A DNA stretch of 64,000 nucleotides from a virus, in IMG/VR virus record IMGVR_UViG_3300012920_000023, positions 49,464-113,463 of that record; one strand, 5' to 3'. The position numbers and the translations under genes were made by a program. The stretch's first letter is position 1; every line of letters begins with the position of its first letter. The notes below the pieces were generated by a model. The model was not told the origin of the DNA. It saw only the letters and a list, made by a program, of their open reading frames with translations, and made no database searches. Of this stretch, positions 3,355 through 63,971 are shown piece by piece.

Positions 3355-5733
3355 TTAAACAACTAGGCAACCGTAGTCCTCTTCACAGTATATAAGCGTA
3401 TCTGTAATAGATCCAAAGTCTACTTCAAAATGAGTACCCTCCACAAAGGTTGTGGCCACTGAACCGTAATCTATGGTCTCTAAAACACGTCCAAATATGA
3501 TGAGATCACCGGACTCAATGGCGACTGTGCTTGATAGATAGTGGTCGCTTATAACAGGAACACTTCCGGACGTTGTTCCGGTGTCTTTTGTTGACGCAGT
3601 TCCTAGAGAGACAGGCTTATACTTATTAAGACTTGAGTCTGTAGTAAACTGTAATACCTGCCCGTTAGATGGAGCAGTTGAGTCCACGTCGGTTAGGTTT
3701 GCGGTAGAAACGCTTAGAGAGAGACTGATTTCATTAGCGGTATCATCATGGGCAAATGTAACCGAATCAACCCCTCCACTGCCATCGCTAGTGTTTCCAC
3801 TTATCAAGGCGTTAGCCACGGCATCTCTAGCCTCTTCATCGGTATAACTAGTCACATCTCCGGGTACAAACTTTGAGGTTCCGTCCCACACTAATGACTG
3901 CCCCGATGTAGGTGCAACAGAGGTGATGTCAACGTCAGAGAGTTTATCAATAGAGGGGAGTGCAGTGAGGTTGACTCCGGAAACCGCCGGTAGACCGCTT
4001 GAGACCAATTTGACCACGTTGTCTGTGTTTGTGCCGGTATCGAGTGATGCCGAAGTTCCGAGAGTTGGAAGCCCGGATAAATCACTGTAAGCGAGCGTTG
4101 CGTTTACAAAAGCAGACCCACTATACCGGAGGACTTGCCCTGCATTTGACACGCTAAGTGTTGAAAGCGTTACATCGTTTAACTCGCCGACTGACTCGTT
4201 GCCCAAATTGACCTCAGATGGAGCGTTAACCCAAGTGGCCGTTCCGTTAGAGTTGGCCTGTAGCAGTTGCCCTGCGGAGCCGTTTGAGGATGGGAGTGTC
4301 CATGCGTCGCTAATCTTCACAGCCCCGGAGTAAATCTCAAGTCCGGTTGTTTCTGTGCCATTTACGGGAACTTTAAGTTTGATTGATCCGTCTGTGCTTG
4401 AAGCGGTGGTGTCCGATGCACATGACTCAATAACACCGTATGATACTAACGTGCTCCCTCCGGAGTCCTTTCCGGTGAACTTTATCTGACCTACAACCTC
4501 GTCTGTGGAGACAGTTGCGTCTGTCTGTAGATCAAGGGTTGGCCCCGTTGTGTTTGACGCTTCTGTGCTCTTAAGCGTGAGGGTTGGCTCTGTGTTACCC
4601 TCAGAGGACATATTTAAAACTAAGCCCACTCCTGCCACGCTATCAAGCGAGATATCGGATGCTCCGAAGTATATTTTCCCTCCGGACTTCAAGTAAAGAT
4701 CTTGCCAAACTGAACTTGAAGAACCGAGTGTGTTGGTTCCTGCGTTTGGCAAAAGGTTTCCTGTCGTTAAGGCGTTTGAAGTGCTTGCTCCACGCCCGGT
4801 GACAGAGTCAAGGGTGTCTGAAAGTGCAGTTTTATCTGCCCAAGAAGTTGTGCCACTTCCATTTGTAGTTAATACCTGCCCGTCGCTTCCCGAATCTGTG
4901 GGCAGAGTCCATGTATTGCTAATTTTAACGACTGCATCCGATGACCCTACTGAATAGACAGACAGGGCAACTAGACTGCCTGCTGTACCTAGGACGTTTA
5001 GATCAATTTGACCCGATTCAAGATCTTCACCAACATCTTTTGCTTTGGCAGTTAGGCTTGCAAATGTCTTGGTTGTGCCTCCGTCATTATCTCCCTTAAA
5101 GTTTAAGATACTAACGGAGTCATTGTCGCTTAAAGTAGCAGAGTTATATATCTCAATCGTATGACCGCTAATTTTTATTCGGCCACTTGTATCTGTGTTT
5201 CTAAGCCCTTTATAGAAGTAGACTTCACCGTCACTAAGAGCCACATCTAAAATATTGGTGATGGTCGCACCGTTGCCGGCTTGCAGAAAGAATGAATCGT
5301 TTCTAGGGTTCGCTAGACCGCCCGAAGCGACAGAGTTTGTGTGTGCACTTACTGCACAGAAGCCTAGCCTAAATCCCTCAATGCCGGATTCGCCTATTTG
5401 AGTGTTTGATGTACCGTGATTAAACTGCACGACGCTACTTGTAGGGTCATTTCCCCGGAGGGTTAGGCGATTCCATGTAGAACCACCTGTTCTTGAGACT
5501 CTGATCTCTTGTCCGTCGATAACTGTTGCACCATCGCCTCTAGTGGCGGTGATCTTACCGGCATCTCCATCACTGACTCCGTTTGTATGAATAGAGTCTG
5601 TAACTTTGAGACCGCCCACCTCAGTTGTGGCCTTAAACGTATGTGCAGAGTTCAGAGTATTTACGTCGCCGGAGTTCAAAATGAACCGTCGGCTTTGACT
5701 GCCCTGTAACCCCTTGTCTGTATAATTCGCCAT
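3355..5733 (-). CDS. Virion structural / tail fibre-like protein
   Basis: Ser/Thr/Gly-rich; repeated WTLPxxxGxxGQVL and LxDVxxxxPxxGQVL segments; C-terminal DYGS/DFGS motifs; GGAGGAG RBS before ATG 5733. Confidence 0.7.
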   Translation of the reverse strand: MANYTDKGLQGSQSRRFILNSGDVNTLNSAHTFKATTEVGGLKVTDSIHTNGVSDGDAGKITATRGDGATVIDGQEIRVSRTGGSTWNRLTLRGNDPTSSVVQFNHGTSNTQIGESGIEGFRLGFCAVSAHTNSVASGGLANPRNDSFFLQAGNGATITNILDVALSDGEVYFYKGLRNTDTSGRIKISGHTIEIYNSATLSDNDSVSILNFKGDNDGGTTKTFASLTAKAKDVGEDLESGQIDLNVLGTAGSLVALSVYSVGSSDAVVKISNTWTLPTDSGSDGQVLTTNGSGTTSWADKTALSDTLDSVTGRGASTSNALTTGNLLPNAGTNTLGSSSSVWQDLYLKSGGKIYFGASDISLDSVAGVGLVLNMSSEGNTEPTLTLKSTEASNTTGPTLDLQTDATVSTDEVVGQIKFTGKDSGGSTLVSYGVIESCASDTTASSTDGSIKLKVPVNGTETTGLEIYSGAVKISDAWTLPSSNGSAGQLLQANSNGTATWVNAPSEVNLGNESVGELNDVTLSTLSVSNAGQVLRYSGSAFVNATLAYSDLSGLPTLGTSASLDTGTNTDNVVKLVSSGLPAVSGVNLTALPSIDKLSDVDITSVAPTSGQSLVWDGTSKFVPGDVTSYTDEEARDAVANALISGNTSDGSGGVDSVTFAHDDTANEISLSLSVSTANLTDVDSTAPSNGQVLQFTTDSSLNKYKPVSLGTASTKDTGTTSGSVPVISDHYLSSTVAIESGDLIIFGRVLETIDYGSVATTFVEGTHFEVDFGSITDTLIYCEEDYGCLVV

Positions 5734-5832
5734 GACGAACTCCTCCAAAAGACAGTTTAATGGTGTTTGGCTAAAGATTGTACCACTCGGCACATTGAAA
5801 GTTAAACCTATAAAGTTTTATTTTATTTTTAC

Positions 5833-5861
5833 TTGACTATACGAGTGTCTTAATATAGTAT
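5833..5861 (+). promoter_or_regulatory. Sigma70-type promoter
   Basis: TTGACT-17 nt-TAGTAT preceded by T-rich tract. Confidence 0.7.
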
Positions 5862-5901
5862 AACCAAAGTTGATTGAGATAAAAAATCCAAGGAGGGTTT
5901 T

Positions 5902-6699
5902 ATGAGTAAGAGAAAATCACATAACGACGAATGGTATGAAGAGTTTGAGGGCACAGAAGATACCGGATTCGATCCGGATTACTGCTACGAGTGCGACTCA
6001 TTCCGATGCGAATGTTATGAACTTCTTGACGGTGATTACAACCAAAGAGGTCGGCAACAGAACTTGTTTGATGGCCTTTTTGATAGTTATCAAAGTGATG
6101 ATTACAATCAAGATTATGGCTATGATGAAGATGATGAATATGATGAACAGCCGGATAACGACTACAGTCAAGTTGTAGAGTATCAACGCAGACCGTTGAG
6201 TCAACCTTTATGGAGTCAGAACTCATTCAGACGCTATAGCATCAAGCCTTTAAATAGAGTTGATCCTAATGAACGGGTTTTATACTTCGCATTTGGCTCA
6301 AATATGGAAAAGAGCCAAATGTTAAAGCGTTGTCCATCGGCTCAAGAGGTTGAGGGCAAGTATACACTTGATGGTTATCGATTGACTTTCTGCGGTCATT
6401 CAAACAAGTGGGGTGGTGGAGTAGCCACAATCATAAAAGAGCGTTTTGATATAGTCCTAGGTCGGTTATTTAGCCTAACTTGGAGCGATGTATATAAACT
6501 AGATGGCTTTGAGGGTCATCCATACGTTTATAAGCGTCAGTATGTCACTCTTACCGACGGTCAAAGGGCATTAACTTACATCAAGCCGGTTAAGAATAAT
6601 GAGTCTAAACCAAGCCTTTCATATTTCACAACAATCGCAAGGGGCTATCAACAAGTGGGGTATGAGTTAGATAAACTTGTTGACTCATCTAGCAAGTAA
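5902..6699 (+). CDS. Gamma-glutamylcyclotransferase (GGCT/AIG2-like) with acidic N-terminal extension
   Basis: LYFAFGSNM, GVATI, LDGFEG and PSLSYF motifs. Confidence 0.85.
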   Translation: MSKRKSHNDEWYEEFEGTEDTGFDPDYCYECDSFRCECYELLDGDYNQRGRQQNLFDGLFDSYQSDDYNQDYGYDEDDEYDEQPDNDYSQVVEYQRRPLSQPLWSQNSFRRYSIKPLNRVDPNERVLYFAFGSNMEKSQMLKRCPSAQEVEGKYTLDGYRLTFCGHSNKWGGGVATIIKERFDIVLGRLFSLTWSDVYKLDGFEGHPYVYKRQYVTLTDGQRALTYIKPVKNNESKPSLSYFTTIARGYQQVGYELDKLVDSSSK

Positions 6700-16247: not shown

Positions 16248-16544
16248 TTCGGGTAGGATAATGCTCTGCCTAAGTATCTTAGAGACACGGCTTAACGAGA
16301 ATGCTTCCAATGAGGAGGCGATTTCATCATTGCCCTCTTTCTTCATACGAATCATCTCGTCTTCAATCTTTATCCCTTTTCGGTAAAGTAGAGTGACAAT
16401 CTCTAGCATAAAGGCGTTCTCAATTCGTGCACTCGTGTGCGTTGAACAATCCCTAAGTAATTCTAGGGCAACTTTACGAGCAAGATACAACTCATTCAAC
16501 ATTACATGGAACTTATCTTGTTCCTTATCAACCGCTTCACTCAT
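16215..16544 (-). CDS. Hypothetical protein
   Basis: Last gene of tightly coupled minus-strand operon. Confidence 0.55.
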   Translation of the reverse strand: MSEAVDKEQDKFHVMLNELYLARKVALELLRDCSTHTSARIENAFMLEIVTLLYRKGIKIEDEMIRMKKEGNDEIASSLEAFSLSRVSKILRQSIILPESTSVGAELDL

Positions 16545-16984
16545 AATCTATCTGCTATATCCTTATCGTGGTTCAAGTCTCCCATGTCATGGAGATGCTT
16601 CATAATAAAAGCGTAAACTCTGCCCCATCCCCATTGCTGTGGAGATACCCCGGGACGGCGTCCGGCGGTTTTACTCGCCTTTACACCTCTAGCAAATATC
16701 TCTTCAAGGTCTTTTAAGGGAATGCCGGTGGCATCTGAAACCGATTTTAGTCCACCGTCCAAGTCTCCATAGGTTTTTTTGAATGCCTTGGTGTATTGAG
16801 ACGGTTTTGTCTTTGCGTCATCTCCGGGCAAGGGCAGGTCTAAAGTTGGCGAGTCCGGGTCTTTTAAGGCAATCTTTTTACGCCTAGAAATCTCTCGATC
16901 TCGCTTCTGTCGCAACTCTTTATCAAGGCCGGACAGGTATCTTGCAGGATTGTCATCCCCTTTAAACCGATATGCCCTCTTCAT
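16541..16984 (-). CDS. DUF5824-like viral protein
   Basis: KPSQYTKAF and TGIPLKDLEEIFARG...RRPGVSPQQWGWGRVYAF motifs. Confidence 0.6.
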   Translation of the reverse strand: MKRAYRFKGDDNPARYLSGLDKELRQKRDREISRRKKIALKDPDSPTLDLPLPGDDAKTKPSQYTKAFKKTYGDLDGGLKSVSDATGIPLKDLEEIFARGVKASKTAGRRPGVSPQQWGWGRVYAFIMKHLHDMGDLNHDKDIADRL

Positions 16985-16989
16985 AATGA

Positions 16990-17340
16990 CTATTCCACGT
17001 CTTCTGATTCGTCAGAGACATCAGACTCTTCGGAATCTTCGACTTCTTCGGAGTCTGCGGAATCTTCTTCAAACGAAATGTCGATGCCATCTTCCTCAGA
17101 TTCGGCTTGAAGTTCGTCCTCAGAGTTATCGCCGGAGCCTGTGATTCGTGCGTATTCGGCCTGTAGACCTTGAAGCGAAAGTGCACATGCTTGAATAATG
17201 ATCTGTCTCTCATAAGGGTTAAGCAGTACACGCTCTGCCACTGCGGTTACGACTTTTACTGCTTCAAAACGTGCTTCAACAATCTGTTCTTCGGTAGGTT
17301 GCTGTTGAGTGTTTGCTTCACTGCTCATAGTTCTCTCCAT
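16990..17340 (-). CDS. Hypothetical protein with acidic C-terminal tail
   Basis: ORF in operon; Glu/Asp/Ser-rich end. Confidence 0.6.
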   Translation of the reverse strand: MERTMSSEANTQQQPTEEQIVEARFEAVKVVTAVAERVLLNPYERQIIIQACALSLQGLQAEYARITGSGDNSEDELQAESEEDGIDISFEEDSADSEEVEDSEESDVSDESEDVE

Positions 17341-35169: not shown

Positions 35170-35267
35170 GCATCAACAGTGGCCACCTATGGTGCTCGTA
35201 AACGCCTGTAAGTAAATGAAAATAAGTGTTATTTGTATTTGACATTCAAGGCCACTTGATATAGTAT
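35170..35267 (+). promoter_or_regulatory. Palindrome-promoter module (degenerate left arm)
   Basis: GCATC..TATGGTGC ends 35195; 43 nt; TTGACA 35239; 17 nt; TAGTAT. Confidence 0.75.
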
Positions 35268-35531: not shown

Positions 35532-35676
35532 GCACCTTATAGGCAATTATGGTGCTCTGCAACTTAGGAGCAACTTAGGAGCACCTTATAGGTAAACCAT
35601 AACGCTTCTAAGTTGTTAAAATAAATCAAAAAAAGATCATTTTTAACTTGACTATAAGGCAGGGCCGAGTTAGTAT
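35532..35676 (+). promoter_or_regulatory. Palindrome-promoter module (one full and one degenerate site)
   Basis: GCACC-N14-GGTGC 35532-35555; second site from 35581; TTGACT 35648-17 nt-TAGTAT. Confidence 0.8.
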
Positions 35677-35715
35677 ATTACATCATTAACGATAAACGCT
35701 TAAGGAGAGCGAAAA

Positions 35716-36127: not shown

Positions 36128-36261
36128 GCACCTTATATATGTGTTATTGGTGCTCCTTAACCGGCTTACATATATAGAACACCATAGCCGGTAAAAGTGT
36201 GACATTTTTTTTAAAGTTTTTTTATTTTTATATTGACTATCACCTTAAACAGAGTTAATAT
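36128..36261 (+). promoter_or_regulatory. Palindrome-promoter module
   Basis: GCACC-N16-GGTGC 36128-36153; TTGACT 36233-17 nt-TAATAT. Confidence 0.8.
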
Positions 36262-36300: not shown

Positions 36301-36597
36301 ATGATCGGACAAACAATCATTCAACAATTAGGCGGAGCCGGTAGGCTTCAAATGTTCATCGGACTAAGACAACTTTTGACCGAGGAGAGCGGAGTGACGC
36401 TCGTATTTCCTAAGCCCAAACACGCCGGTGCGGTCAATAGAGTTCGTATTACCCTTAACCCCAAAGACCTTTATGATATGGAGTTCATTAGATACTCTAA
36501 AAGAGGCGTAAAGGTTGTTAAAGAGTCCAATGACGTTTATGCCGAGGACTTGAGAGATAGATTTGAAGAGGGAACCGGCCTTTATATCCGGTTCTAA
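36301..36597 (+). CDS. Conserved phage hypothetical protein
   Basis: TIIQQLGG...DLYDMEF...DVYAEDL..FEEGTGLY motif. Confidence 0.75.
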   Translation: MIGQTIIQQLGGAGRLQMFIGLRQLLTEESGVTLVFPKPKHAGAVNRVRITLNPKDLYDMEFIRYSKRGVKVVKESNDVYAEDLRDRFEEGTGLYIRF

Positions 36598-36679
36598 GTT
36601 GAGCCGGAGCGAGGGGTATAGGTTGAGCCGGTAGAGAGAGGGGTTAGGTTGACTTGGTCTTGCTAACCGGCTCATGACA

Positions 36680-36776
36680 GCACCTTTATTGACCATAATG
36701 GTGCTCCGTAAGGGCTTAAAACAAATAAACTTTTTTATTATTTTTACTTGACTATTGGGTGTGGATATTGTACTCT
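36680..36776 (+). promoter_or_regulatory. Palindrome-promoter module
   Basis: GCACC-N15-GGTGC 36680-36704; 43 nt; TTGACT 36748. Confidence 0.8.
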
Positions 36777-36814
36777 ATATACATGTTAAAGATAAACGCA
36801 AAGGAGGCGTTAAC

Positions 36815-37033
36815 ATGAAAGAGCAAAAACCCTTTAAAGTACTCGTCAAAGATATGGATTCTCATCATGGCGTCGAGTTCAAAATCAAAGAGAAAGGCGT
36901 GCCAAGCGTGGACGCCAAAATCTACCGAGCAATTGAGCAAATCAAACTGCAACGTAAGGAAGCCAATATGTTTGAAGTCCGTATTACTGCATGTAACGGA
37001 GGCCATGAAGATTACCAACTAGTCTCGCCCTAA
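36815..37033 (+). CDS. Hypothetical early protein
   Basis: AAGGAGG RBS before ATG 36815. Confidence 0.7.
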   Translation: MKEQKPFKVLVKDMDSHHGVEFKIKEKGVPSVDAKIYRAIEQIKLQRKEANMFEVRITACNGGHEDYQLVSP

Positions 37034-37097
37034 AAACAGGGGCTAGGTCGGGCAGGGTAAGACCTTAGCCCTCGACCTCAACCAAGACACCCGGAAA

Positions 37098-37124
37098 GCC
37101 CCCTCGTCAATCGAGGGGCGTTTT
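37098..37124 (+). terminator. Intrinsic terminator
   Basis: CCCCTCG-TCAAT-CGAGGGG stem-loop then TTTT. Confidence 0.65.
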
Positions 37125-37138
37125 ATCGAAATAAAAAT

Positions 37139-37235
37139 GCACCATTATGATCAATAAAGGTGCTCTTAAGTACCTGTAATCAAATGAAAATAATTGTTTC
37201 TTTTACTTGACTAACAGTGTCCCTTAGTGTATAAC
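37139..37235 (+). promoter_or_regulatory. Palindrome-promoter module
   Basis: GCACC-N15-GGTGC 37139-37163; 43 nt; TTGACT 37207-17 nt-TATAAC. Confidence 0.82.
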
Positions 37236-37276: not shown

Positions 37277-37738
37277 ATGATTGAACAACTAAACGACTTA
37301 TTTAATAAGATTCAAGGCCGGCTCGTCGAAGCCTTTGACCTAGTAGCCGACGAGGCTCTAGGGTTAACTTTACTCATGATGGTTAACCGAAAAAAGGCTT
37401 TAAGCCGGAACGGGTTGACCGCAGAGTGGCGTAAGGATGACGCACGCCGAATGGCACAACATTTCTATTGGCTCGCTAAGACTTACGAGCGTATAGGTGA
37501 GGATGGGCGAGCGATCTGCTTCAAACGAGCGTCAAGCGTCATTTATAAGGCGATCAGAAAAAATGAGGGCTTCACCGGTAAGGACTTTTTAACTCATGAG
37601 CATGTCGGAAAAAAGGTGAGACTTGAAGCGTACCAAGTATGGCTTAAGGATGGGTACACAGAGAGAGTACAAGGATTAATCGACGGTGGTATGATCGACC
37701 CCGATTATCCGGCTCCAATGACAACTTGGGAGGGATAA
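37277..37738 (+). CDS. Protein with PolX/pol beta 8-kDa (HHH_8)-like domain
   Basis: LAKTYERIGEDGRAICFKRASSVI...VGKK...DG pattern. Confidence 0.55.
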   Translation: MIEQLNDLFNKIQGRLVEAFDLVADEALGLTLLMMVNRKKALSRNGLTAEWRKDDARRMAQHFYWLAKTYERIGEDGRAICFKRASSVIYKAIRKNEGFTGKDFLTHEHVGKKVRLEAYQVWLKDGYTERVQGLIDGGMIDPDYPAPMTTWEG

Positions 37739-39328: not shown

Positions 39329-39477
39329 CTCCGATATTCAACTTAAAATGTTCACTGTGAACATATAACGGATGATGATTGTCACACGCTAGGTTCAATG
39401 TCAAGTCGAAAAGATTGTGCACACGAGTGCATGATGTGGCCGGCAGATTATCTTCTCAGAAATACTTTCTTTTTTAC

Positions 39478-46299: not shown

Positions 46300-47019
46300 C
46301 TACCACCTTATCATTGGAAAATTGTCGCTCATGTACTCGTCAAACTCTTGACTATTAAGTGCTAAAGTCTCGACTTGATCTATACTGTGTTGAGGTTCAT
46401 AATACAGGTCTCTTACGATATCTGCACCATATTTTAAAAAGGCTCCCGGAGTAATCGAGTAATAGTCGTTAAAAGATTGTTCCTTAGAGACATACTTCCA
46501 TCCACAGTCATTGGATATGGATTCAATAGGAATAAGCCCGGTTACATAAGCCTTTTGAGAGAACGGTCTAGTCACGCAGAGGATGATGTGATTGCAACCA
46601 AAAGACTTAAGTTTGACATTTTTTTGAGCATTTACTTTGATCGTGTCTCTCTGATGAGGACGCATGATCGAGTATGATTTAGAGTCCACCCACTGCTGTT
46701 CACCCTCGTTTAGAAGCAGGAAGTCGGCTTCTCCATCCGGGCGACTCCTAATGTCTGTGTGCAGGAGATTAGACTGTGCATGGGTTACTGCAACCCCGGT
46801 TGCGTTATTCTTCATAAGGTGCAACATGATCAGAACTTCACTGAACACACCAACAAGATCACACCTCATGTCTCTTATTCGTCCCCTTGATTTTCTTGGG
46901 TCAACCTTACCCCGGTTATAACGCTGACGGTTTAGCATTATCCTTAATGATATGGCCCAAGCGATGATCGGCACATCGCAGAACCCGGCAATACTCTCAA
47001 GTATATCAGTGTCACCCAT
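46300..47019 (-). CDS. Putative PD-(D/E)xK endonuclease-fold protein
   Basis: GVFSE...DGEADF...WVDSKS pattern. Confidence 0.45.
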   Translation of the reverse strand: MGDTDILESIAGFCDVPIIAWAISLRIMLNRQRYNRGKVDPRKSRGRIRDMRCDLVGVFSEVLIMLHLMKNNATGVAVTHAQSNLLHTDIRSRPDGEADFLLLNEGEQQWVDSKSYSIMRPHQRDTIKVNAQKNVKLKSFGCNHIILCVTRPFSQKAYVTGLIPIESISNDCGWKYVSKEQSFNDYYSITPGAFLKYGADIVRDLYYEPQHSIDQVETLALNSQEFDEYMSDNFPMIRW

Positions 47020-58745: not shown

Positions 58746-58841
58746 GCACCATAGTATAGTCTAATGGTGCTCCGTAAGTCTCCGGTTTTATTTAAACTTT
58801 TTTTATTTTTAGTTGACTTTCAATCGGTAATAGGTTAATAT
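58746..58841 (+). promoter_or_regulatory. Palindrome-promoter module
   Basis: GCACC-N15-GGTGC 58746-58770; 42 nt; TTGACT 58813-17 nt-TAATAT. Confidence 0.82.
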
Positions 58842-58878
58842 ATATACATCATTAAATAACGACTTAAGGAGGTCGAAA

Positions 58879-59277: not shown

Positions 59278-59375
59278 GCACCATTAGTATAACCTTATGG
59301 TGCTCCGTAAAGCCTTAATATATATTAAACTCTCTTTCTTTTTTACTTGACTATAAAGGCCATACGAGGTAGTGT
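59278..59375 (+). promoter_or_regulatory. Palindrome-promoter module
   Basis: GCACC-N16-GGTGC 59278-59303; 43 nt; TTGACT 59347-17 nt-TAGTGT. Confidence 0.82.
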
Positions 59376-59413
59376 GTATATATATTAATGATAAAGGCTT
59401 AAGGAGGCCGAAA

Positions 59414-59626
59414 ATGATGGTATCTGATTTTCATAATATACGAATTTGGGTGATTGAGGTATGGAACGTGAACGGCGACTCCGTACTTTTTACCGCTTCA
59501 TCAAAGGCTCGGGCAATCAAGATTGCAGAGGAGGCACTCAAGCCTTATCCCGTTGAGGTTGAGAACGGCGATAGAGGCTTTGAGTTGACGAGTACAACGC
59601 TTGATGAGGTATTTGAGGTTTACTGA
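59414..59626 (+). CDS. Small early protein, paralogue A
   Basis: TAAGGAGG RBS; highly similar to 60608 ORF. Confidence 0.75.
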   Translation: MMVSDFHNIRIWVIEVWNVNGDSVLFTASSKARAIKIAEEALKPYPVEVENGDRGFELTSTTLDEVFEVY

Positions 59627-59713: not shown

Positions 59714-59810
59714 GCACCTTTATGAGTATCAATGGTGCTCCATAAGTGCCGGTATTTATTTAAAGTTTTTTTATTTTTATCTTGACTATAAGTGAAAGGT
59801 TAGGTACTAT
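59714..59810 (+). promoter_or_regulatory. Palindrome-promoter module
   Basis: GCACC-N15-GGTGC 59714-59738; 43 nt; TTGACT 59782-17 nt-TACTAT. Confidence 0.82.
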
Positions 59811-60393: not shown

Positions 60394-60573
60394 GTACCAT
60401 AAGGCTGTACTATGGTGCTCTCAGTGCGGATCGTTCTGATCTAATGTACACACACGGGTCGTGTCTGTTGCCGGTTGCACCATTAATGACACTTATGGTG
60501 CTCTGTAAACCCCTAAAAATAAATAAACTTTTACTGTTTTTTACTTGACTATGCTAACGATGCGATGTAGTAT
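60394..60573 (+). promoter_or_regulatory. Palindrome-promoter module with two sites
   Basis: Sites 60394-60418 and 60477-60501; 43 nt; TTGACT 60545-17 nt-TAGTAT. Confidence 0.82.
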
Positions 60574-60607: not shown

Positions 60608-60811
60608 ATGACAGTATCAAAAATGACAGTATGGGTGATTGAGATTTGGCAAGTTGGATACGACCCTGTTTTATTCACAGCGTCAACTCGTGAAAAGGCG
60701 ATTGAGATGGCCGAAAAGGCTCTTGAGCCATACTCACTTGAGGTTGAGAATGGCGAACGAGGATACGAGTTGACGAGTACAACGCTCGATGAAGTTTTTG
60801 AAGTTCACTAG
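60608..60811 (+). CDS. Small early protein, paralogue B
   Basis: Shares WVIE.W, LFTAS, EVENG.RG.ELTSTTLDEVFEV with 59414 ORF. Confidence 0.75.
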   Translation: MTVSKMTVWVIEIWQVGYDPVLFTASTREKAIEMAEKALEPYSLEVENGERGYELTSTTLDEVFEVH

Positions 60812-61153: not shown

Positions 61154-61250
61154 GCACCTTTACGAGTATTAATGGTGCAGTGTAAGTGTCTGTTTTTGTT
61201 TAAAGTTTTTTATTTTTTTATTTGACAAACAAACCTGTGTGGGTTATAAC
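61154..61250 (+). promoter_or_regulatory. Palindrome-promoter module
   Basis: GCACC-N15-GGTGC 61154-61178; 43 nt; TTGACA 61222-17 nt-TATAAC. Confidence 0.82.
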
Positions 61251-61685: not shown

Positions 61686-61745
61686 AATACGGGTGAGACT
61701 CATTGAGATCAGAGGGTCGCCCCTCTGTTTGTTGGTAATAGCATT

Positions 61746-61843
61746 GCACCATGTGCCCATACTATGGTGCTCTATAACCGGCCGAAATCATTTTAAGTTT
61801 TCTATCTTTTTTAGTTGACTTTCAATATGGGTCGAGTTATGGT
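61746..61843 (+). promoter_or_regulatory. Palindrome-promoter module
   Basis: GCACC-N15-GGTGC 61746-61770; 44 nt; TTGACT 61815-17 nt-TATGGT. Confidence 0.82.
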
Positions 61844-63297: not shown

Positions 63298-63440
63298 GCA
63301 CCATTAGCAGTCACTAAAGGTGCTCCCGTATATAGGAAGTCGGTTCCTGTTTAGCCCGGTAATAGGAAGTCGCTTCCTATTTAAATATTTCAAACTTTCT
63401 TTCTTTTTTACTTGACTAACAGGTGGGTTTAGGGTATTAT
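63298..63440 (+). promoter_or_regulatory. Palindrome-promoter module with inserted hairpin duplication
   Basis: GCACC-N16-GGTGC 63298-63323; TTGACT 63412-17 nt-TATTAT. Confidence 0.78.
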
Positions 63441-63909: not shown

Positions 63910-63971
63910 GCACCTTATAGCGTTTAATGGTGCTATCACTTTTGGAGCACGTTAATAACCATTAATGGTGC
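63910..63971. repeat. Two further GCACC...GGTGC palindromes
   Basis: 63910-63933 and 63947-63971, followed by A-rich tract to window end. Confidence 0.8.

Follow-up and report, generated by a model that had tools for sequence, protein, structure and literature searches.

Promoter-phased palindromes in a T4-like myovirus, probably upstream operators at the 5' edges of PeSL-like early-gene cassettes

The palindromes that recur in the small-gene arrays of this phage are best read, at a probability of about 0.6, as upstream operators: each would be part of an early-gene regulatory module resembling the PeSLs (promoter-early stem-loop cassettes) of T4-type phages, phased with a UP-element/sigma70 promoter and placed at the 5' edge of a gene cassette. 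A new recombination system is not revealed here. The window, by which we mean the whole 64,000-nucleotide stretch of DNA analysed, covers positions 49464-113463 of the 113,463-bp IMG/VR record IMGVR_UViG_3300012920_000023, a contig that CheckV estimates to be 63% of the genome, with 37% missing. Pfam and PHROG scans identify the phage as a myovirus with a T4-like tail-tube protein (gp19), gp25 and baseplate families, and the contig also encodes a class II ribonucleotide reductase, a DnaB-type helicase, PhoH, ThyX and a ParB-like protein. A megablast of 4 kb against GenBank phages gave no match, and tblastn with the helicase and a baseplate protein found GenBank phages to be only ~25% identical by protein. 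The IMG/VR relatives L034-L038 are ~50% identical at the protein level and carry neither the palindrome motif nor the TTTTNNTTGACW promoter type, and pattern scans of IMG/VR returned only single chance matches, in unrelated contigs. A metagenome scan with the palindrome-plus-promoter pattern recovered four true relatives (L049, L052, L042 and L064) among 26 stretches, L049 being a 5.8-kb sequence with eight sites. On these comparisons, the conservation of the motif is seen only within a narrow clade. A literature search on the motif words returned nothing relevant.

The motif is far too frequent for chance: exact GCACC-N13-17-GGTGC matches number 12 in the window against 0.10 expected, and none of 100 shuffles reached 12. 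The contig holds 18 exact matches, and one-mismatch copies beside promoters (the mismatch lying in the distal arm in four of five) bring the total to about 20. These 18 sites are confined to three arrays of small genes, at 35.1-37.2 kb and 58.7-64 kb of the window and at 0.1-4.2 kb of the contig. In its symmetric form the site reads GAGCACC-W-T-W-A, a variable centre, T-W-A-W-GGTGCTC and then CYTAAG; the outer 5 bp of the arms are invariant in more than 40 sites across several phages, and the inner arm positions are only W-T-W-A. The spacing between the GCACC blocks is mostly 14, 15 or 16 nt, and it is 22-24 nt in three sites (G 461, G 5563 and L064 1036). The members that lie in the window are listed in Table 1, together with the elements of the two adjoining modules headed by palindromes A and B.

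Table 1. Palindromes and neighbouring elements, in window coordinates.
Feature	Position	Strand	Remarks
Family member, one distal-arm mismatch	35170-35195	+	43 nt to TTGACA
Family member (N14)	35532-35555	+	Distal site of tandem pair upstream of promoter 35648
Family member (N16)	36128-36153	+	Upstream of promoter 36233
Palindrome A, GCACC-N15-GGTGC	36680-36704	+	Proximal half-site GGTGC, then TCCGTAAG
A/T-rich spacer, 43 nt, UP-element-like phased A/T tracts	36705-36747	+	
Sigma70-type promoter, TTGACT, 17-nt spacer, TACTCT	36748-36776	+	
72-aa ORFan	36815-37033	+	Shine-Dalgarno AAGGAGG at 36801-36807; no Pfam family
Canonical intrinsic terminator hairpin, then T run	37100-37118	+	20 nt 5' of palindrome B
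Palindrome B, GCACC-N15-GGTGC	37139-37163	+	Reverse complement of A, one core mismatch
A/T-rich spacer of next module, 43 nt	37164-37206	+	
Sigma70-type promoter of next module, TTGACT, 17-nt spacer, TATAAC	37207-37235	+	
153-aa ORF	37277-37738	+	Driven by module headed by palindrome B
Family member (N15)	58746-58770	+	-35 box 42 nt away
Family member (N16)	59278-59303	+	-35 box 43 nt away; heads cassette paralogous to that of 60477
Family member (N15)	59714-59738	+	-35 box 43 nt away; direct relative of 61154
Family member, one distal-arm mismatch	60394-60418	+	Tandem with 60477
Family member (N15)	60477-60501	+	-35 box 43 nt away
Family member (N15)	61154-61178	+	-35 box 43 nt away
Family member (N15)	61746-61770	+	-35 box 44 nt away; terminator 61710-61727 precedes
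Family member (N16)	63298-63323	+	88 nt upstream of promoter 63412
Tandem pair at contig end	63910-63971	+	63910-63933 exact; 63947-63971 one mismatch

What sets these palindromes apart is their position relative to a promoter. Across 28 oriented sites, pooled from the study phage and the four metagenome relatives, the end of the proximal GGTGC lies 42-44 nt from the -35 box (TTGACT) in 21, and exactly 43 nt from it in 16, which places the centre of the site near -91. The consensus of 18 modules runs from the distal GCACC through the variable centre to T-A-W-GGTGCTC and CTAAG, then through phased A/T tracts with a UP-like TTNAAAATAA to TTTTTAC-TTGACTA, an N17 spacer ending in CGAG, a TAGTAT-type -10 box, a CATCA start region, a Shine-Dalgarno sequence and ATG. 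Spacer and promoter sequences are only ~49% identical between modules, and the length of 43 nt is nevertheless constant, so that the length itself looks selected. The orientation of the module to its promoter is fixed as well, and it holds on both strands (minus at contig 0.4-4.2 kb, plus in the window), as does the flank TCCTAAG; of the two half-sites, it is the proximal one whose position relative to the promoter stays constant. The same promoter class also has members without a site (window 5833 and 39478), so that the palindrome marks a promoter subclass or a regulated subset.

Several further elements accompany these promoters. Beyond the hexamers, the CGAG that ends the 17-nt spacer and the CATCA at the presumed start (for example window 35648-35690 and 58813-58850) are conserved in the relatives too. 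A second palindrome, TGCAC-N4-GTGCA (GTGCAC-N3-5-GTGCA), stands beside several same-class promoters (window 39417-39431; contig 4178 and 88880) and also occurs in the relative L052 at 1316 and 2214; the ParB-like protein is encoded at contig 16464-17249, and this second palindrome may be another operator or a parS-like system. Half-sites of the main motif are also found in other arrangements: upstream of the minus-strand promoter at contig 417, at least eight of them (WWTGGTGCTGTGTG and GAGCACCAT) are clustered at contig 430-830 in mixed orientation, including a palindrome with 22-nt spacing, and this cluster may be a hub or a sink for the same binding factor; an everted pair, GGTGCTC-N9-GAGCACC, at contig 46380-46440 is common to the divergent promoters 46366 (-) and 46491 (+). 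About five tandem iteron-like repeats of GGGGTGTTGATA lie at contig 5760-5830, downstream of the minus-strand ORF 5826-6218, and could be an origin or another binding array.

A palindrome can be conserved for the structure it folds into or for the sequence of its halves. At arm positions 6-10, 71 cells are complementary within sites, versus 76 +/- 4.8 when arms are paired across sites, and position 6 is complementary in 13 sites where 17 are expected. This lack of covariation indicates that the arms are conserved as sequence and not as a stem, the two halves being independent copies of GAGCACC-[A>T]-T-[T>A]-A. The palindrome could still act as a stem-loop, as a terminator, attenuator, insulator or RNA-processing or stabilising hairpin, through read-through transcripts or a cruciform and maybe with the help of a hairpin-specific protein. 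RNA hairpins of -10 to -12.5 kcal/mol are in fact predicted (z-scores -3.3 to -4.7), loops of 14-24 nt are natural for a hairpin, most cassettes have no canonical terminator upstream of the palindrome, the orphan site G 5563 sits between convergent gene ends, and termination of transcription by the RB49 PeSL stem-loop has been demonstrated by experiment (PMC2839356). Yet the stem is not followed by a U tract (GGTGCTCCGTAAG follows instead), position 6 is mismatched above expectation, structure alone does not require the invariance of the outer 5 bp, and an RNA element would have no use for a gap of 43 +/- 1 nt before the next -35 box. In addition, two of the palindromes come directly, by ~20 nt, after canonical terminators (37100-37118 and 61710-61727), which leaves no need for the palindrome to terminate transcription at those places, and an Rfam search of the window gave no match. 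We therefore consider a stem-loop function unlikely; an ordinary intrinsic terminator, in particular, was rejected because the palindrome has no T run after it and separate terminators are present.

The operator reading accounts for these properties as follows. A two-fold symmetric, sequence-specific DNA-binding protein, encoded by the phage or by the host, would dock on the two half-sites and, from a fixed position across the bent A/T spacer, would modulate the sigma70-RNA polymerase at ~20 early promoters. Activation or timed shut-off of a small-ORFan regulon would be the most likely effect of such a protein. The half-sites have the sequence conservation without arm covariation that is expected of an operator, and distance and orientation to the core promoter are fixed across promoters and relatives. 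Other observations count against it: the half-site spacing varies (14, 15, 16 and 22-24 nt), which a rigid dimer, though not a hairpin, would tolerate poorly; the RNA hairpins are foldable; at a few orphan sites (G 85, 5563 and 14939) a promoter is missing; a simple repressor would not be expected to centre as far upstream as -91; and the relatives at ~50% protein identity have neither motif nor promoter type. No HTH or other regulator is present among the top Pfam and PHROG matches listed for the 123 ORFs of this 63%-complete genome.

The closest known counterparts are the PeSLs of T4-type phages, in which a stem-loop is followed first by an A/T-rich tract, then by a sigma70 early promoter and finally by a Shine-Dalgarno sequence; they cluster in hyperplastic ORFan regions, mediating insertions, deletions and replacements, and those crossovers that were mapped fall either within the A/T-rich tract or downstream of the -10 box, ahead of the Shine-Dalgarno sequence (PMC2839356, PMC4122927). 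Crossovers in this type of shuffling are homologous and not core-specific (PMC2839356). The likeness is threefold: (i), the order of the elements, through Shine-Dalgarno and ATG, is the same as in the PeSLs compared in RB49/phi1, T4/PST and KVP40/nt-1; (ii), the palindrome modules are, like PeSLs, intergenic and located in small-ORFan arrays of a T4-like myovirus; (iii), as with PeSLs, modules are kept among relatives while genes are replaced, and indel junctions lie at modules. Mini-circles arising from recombination between neighbouring modules are a further trait of PeSL-type cassettes. The differences concern the palindrome itself: PeSL stems are G/C-rich, variable in sequence and shown to terminate transcription, whereas the arms here are invariant (GAGCACC/GGTGCTC), without covariation or U tract, and the palindrome keeps a constant 43 nt to the -35 box, which centres it near -91. 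Because the arms are invariant without covariation, the terminator tail is missing and the 43-nt phasing is strict, we class it with the PeSL-like cassettes and take its upstream element to be, most likely, an operator.

Upstream activator sites or global operators phased with RNA polymerase are known elsewhere and recall this geometry. Protein p4 of phi29 has its sites upstream of promoter A3, as inverted repeats with a distance of 15 bp; Fis sites lie upstream of the rrnB P1 UP element, the OB operators of plasmid RK2 are bound by KorB, and NtrC sites, GCACC-N5-GGTGC with 5-nt spacing, serve sigma54 promoters. The palindromes described here share with these systems two-fold symmetric half-sites in a many-copy regulon and a fixed helical position upstream of a UP-element promoter. 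With NtrC they also share the half-site word GCACC/GGTGC, whereas spacing and sigma class differ. They differ in that the half-sites are ~20 bp apart centre to centre with a tolerance of +/-1, and in that a cognate protein was not found among the matches listed for the 63%-complete genome.

Unlike the genes that lie between them, the modules are repeated and conserved, which suggests that they also act as portable linkers: as units of ~110 bp, they would allow cassettes to be gained, lost, duplicated and flipped, an exchange that would be driven by the general (micro)homology-driven recombination of the phage, as in T4-type PeSLs. The comparison with L049, which is collinear with contig 0-5.5 kb, illustrates this. 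The modules of the two phages are 75-90% identical in nucleotide sequence, and contig site 2398 matches L049 2473 in 25 of 25 positions; none of the small ORFs are homologous, and the sole shared gene is an amidoligase (59% amino-acid identity). A single-copy hairpin, GGAACTSAGTTCC, adjoins site 4117 in the study phage and the orthologue of the 2398 module in L049, implying an indel of three cassettes, which are present in one phage and absent from the other. The junction of this indel lies at the outer edge of the palindrome, and L049 carries the 2398-type inner arm and core, so that the exchange would have spared the core and taken place at the distal GCACC or beyond it. A second difference concerns the amidoligase unit (site, GTGCAC repeats, promoter and gene), which is bracketed by palindromes in both phages and inverted between them, pointing away from the cassette array in the study phage and along it in L049. 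The amidoligase gene itself (PF12224) occupies L049 3528-4475 and contig 4471-5409, and in both phages a same-class promoter without palindrome accompanies it. From this single diverged comparison, the modules appear as seams of exchange, and the events do not indicate a mechanism; that palindromes delimit the shuffled cassettes is supported by them.

As to the genes in the cassettes, Pfam hits were absent or marginal in 20 of 20 cassette ORFs tested. The 153-aa protein encoded at 37277 has homologues (P0001-P0006, 64-97% identity) in ENA/Logan assemblies and none in IMG/VR. Cassettes can also be duplicated within the phage. Those headed by sites 59278 and 60477 encode paralogues of 67-84 aa and have kept arms, promoter and ORF, while their cores have diverged, with a 1-nt indel; the core is thus free to drift, whereas strand exchange would demand the reverse. 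The paralogous ORFs (window 59372-59626 and 60608-60811) both end in ...LTSTTLDEVFEV[YH], and as each has its own palindrome-promoter module, the duplication took in the whole cassette.

A different reading had been put forward in an earlier note on this DNA, which saw in the palindromes a tyrosine-recombinase geometry and singled out two neighbours as near-exact inverted copies. The pair is real: sites 36680 and 37139 are reverse complements with one core mismatch and bracket ORF 36815-37033. They agree in 24 of 25 positions (the mismatch being TTGACCA vs TTGATCA), and what they bracket is one complete promoter-ORF-terminator unit. With 14 of 15 inner positions matching, the pair ranks at the top of ~190 pairwise comparisons, and the probability of a maximum of at least 14 is ~0.01 under position-specific and core-shuffle nulls, both of which respect the motif. 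The likeness could be a coincidence within a constrained motif family, with no meaning of its own, given that 8 of the 15 inner positions are constrained to W-T-W-A, that the pair was picked post hoc and that a P of ~0.01 is not extreme. The other pairs that had been cited do little on the site alone: 58746/60394, described as inverted relatives, match in 12 of 15 positions (P ~0.5), which is the chance level, and the direct relatives 59714/61154 match in 13 of 15 (P ~0.1), a marginal likeness that extends to their flanks and is better ascribed to module duplication. Yet 14 of 15 is the single top value of all these comparisons, and the two sites are immediate neighbours, which makes coincidence quite unlikely. 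The likeness is probably real shared ancestry or conversion, though the statistics are not overwhelming.

How the two sites came to be alike can be narrowed down further. They stand 459 bp apart, and the similarity is confined to the 25-bp palindromes; a recent tandem duplication of the two modules was rejected because the modules downstream of them are only 43% identical, the average for modules. Such confinement suggests short-patch conversion or template switching, or else the 1% coincidence, and the likeness is best explained by conversion or template switching of this kind between neighbouring quasi-palindromes, not by a dedicated invertase. An inversion of 36705-37138 would move promoter, gene and terminator together and thereby switch nothing. 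Short direct repeats of the form RGGTTGAS lie just 5' of site 36680 (window 36596-36660; AGGTTGAGCCGG twice, then AGGTTGAC) and of sites 58746, 59714 and 61154.

In its strongest form, the recombinase reading takes the palindromes as core-type sites of a tyrosine recombinase, either the host XerCD or an enzyme encoded in the missing 37% of the genome, which would shuffle cassettes in a pdif- or integron-like manner, with 36680/37139 delimiting an invertible unit. Most sites do have arms of 9-11 bp around centres of 6-8 bp, the inverted pair is no more alike in its flanks than average modules are, the amidoligase unit lies palindrome-bracketed and in opposite orientations relative to the array in the two phages, and the indel junction adjoins a palindrome. 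The geometry of 11-bp arms and a 6-8-bp core fits the spacings of 14-16 nt, but the members with 22-24 nt do not conform. The search for a tyrosine recombinase beyond the window came back empty: neither PF00589 (Phage_integrase) nor PF00239 (Resolvase) has a match in the 113-kb contig (63% complete), while control genomes do match, and no recombinase is among the matches listed in the Pfam and PHROG scans of 123 ORFs. Only one pair of sites has related cores, and core lengths differ as well, so that strand exchange between sites would be blocked; even that pair, 36680/37139, is mismatched in its core. Degeneracy at the inner arm positions also speaks against a recombinase, as do the fixed orientation of the sites and their phasing to promoters; the unit between palindromes A and B is no switch, and the L049 indel keeps one parental inner arm (TTTA) and core, placing the crossover in or to the left of the distal GCACC. 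We regard this mechanism as highly improbable.

The same conclusion comes from the comparison with characterised sites. Like Xer dif and pdif sites, the palindromes are ~28 bp long with arms around a 6-8-bp centre, some with inner CATAA/TTATG, and like a pdif module one gene unit is bracketed by inverted sites. In contrast, their outer arms are unrelated to the XerC/XerD arms; degeneracy falls on the inner arm positions, where Xer sites are most conserved, so that 11-bp arms with conserved inner positions around a centre of fixed 6-8-bp length were not found; the centres vary in sequence and length, and instead of being shared between partners they are related in only one pair, and there with a mismatch; and the sites keep phase with promoters, show no alternating orientation and have no recombinase found in the contig. 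The attC sites of integrons are likewise imperfect inverted repeats at the boundaries of cassettes, in arrays of small unrelated genes. However, each cassette here has its own promoter and its site lies 5' of that promoter, whereas integron cassettes are promoterless and attC lies 3' of a promoterless ORF; attC measures 57-141 bp against 25 bp here; and neither IntI integrase nor attI site nor common promoter is found in the contig; the arrays do not qualify as integrons.

Of the proposal made in the earlier note, it is thus the idea that the sites delimit shuffled cassettes that stands, through L049, and the recombinase that finds no support. Comparing the cassette order with a relative, as had been suggested there, cuts the same way for L049 and contig 0-5.5 kb, the indel and the inversion abutting palindromes while the one resolvable junction lies outside the core. 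Of the reservations voiced alongside the proposal, the fixed promoter spacing, with its 43-nt phasing and fixed orientation, makes a regulator the better reading; the cores, said there to differ mostly, are unrelated between sites and vary in length.

A more far-reaching version of the operator reading can be envisaged, in which the GAGCACC/GGTGCTC arms are the landing site of a dedicated phage protein that both regulates the early ORFan promoters and promotes the exchange or inversion of cassettes. We hold this to be very unlikely; if true, such a dual-role arm-binding protein would mean site-directed gene shuffling in lytic phages without a canonical tyrosine or serine recombinase. The authors of the PeSL studies raised a similar speculation on shuffling for their own stem-loops and left open whether a helper protein binds (PMC2839356, PMC4122927). 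If the palindromes are operators, as we favour, this phage would be a clear example of an early cassette whose stem-loop part behaves as a sequence-specific operator and not as a terminator, and where the same element, helically phased to its promoter, marks the seams where relatives swap ORFan genes. The modules would then be a handle for finding early regulons in uncultured phages and for identifying their regulator, and they may offer a view on how phages exchange accessory genes, be it for host takeover or anti-defence.
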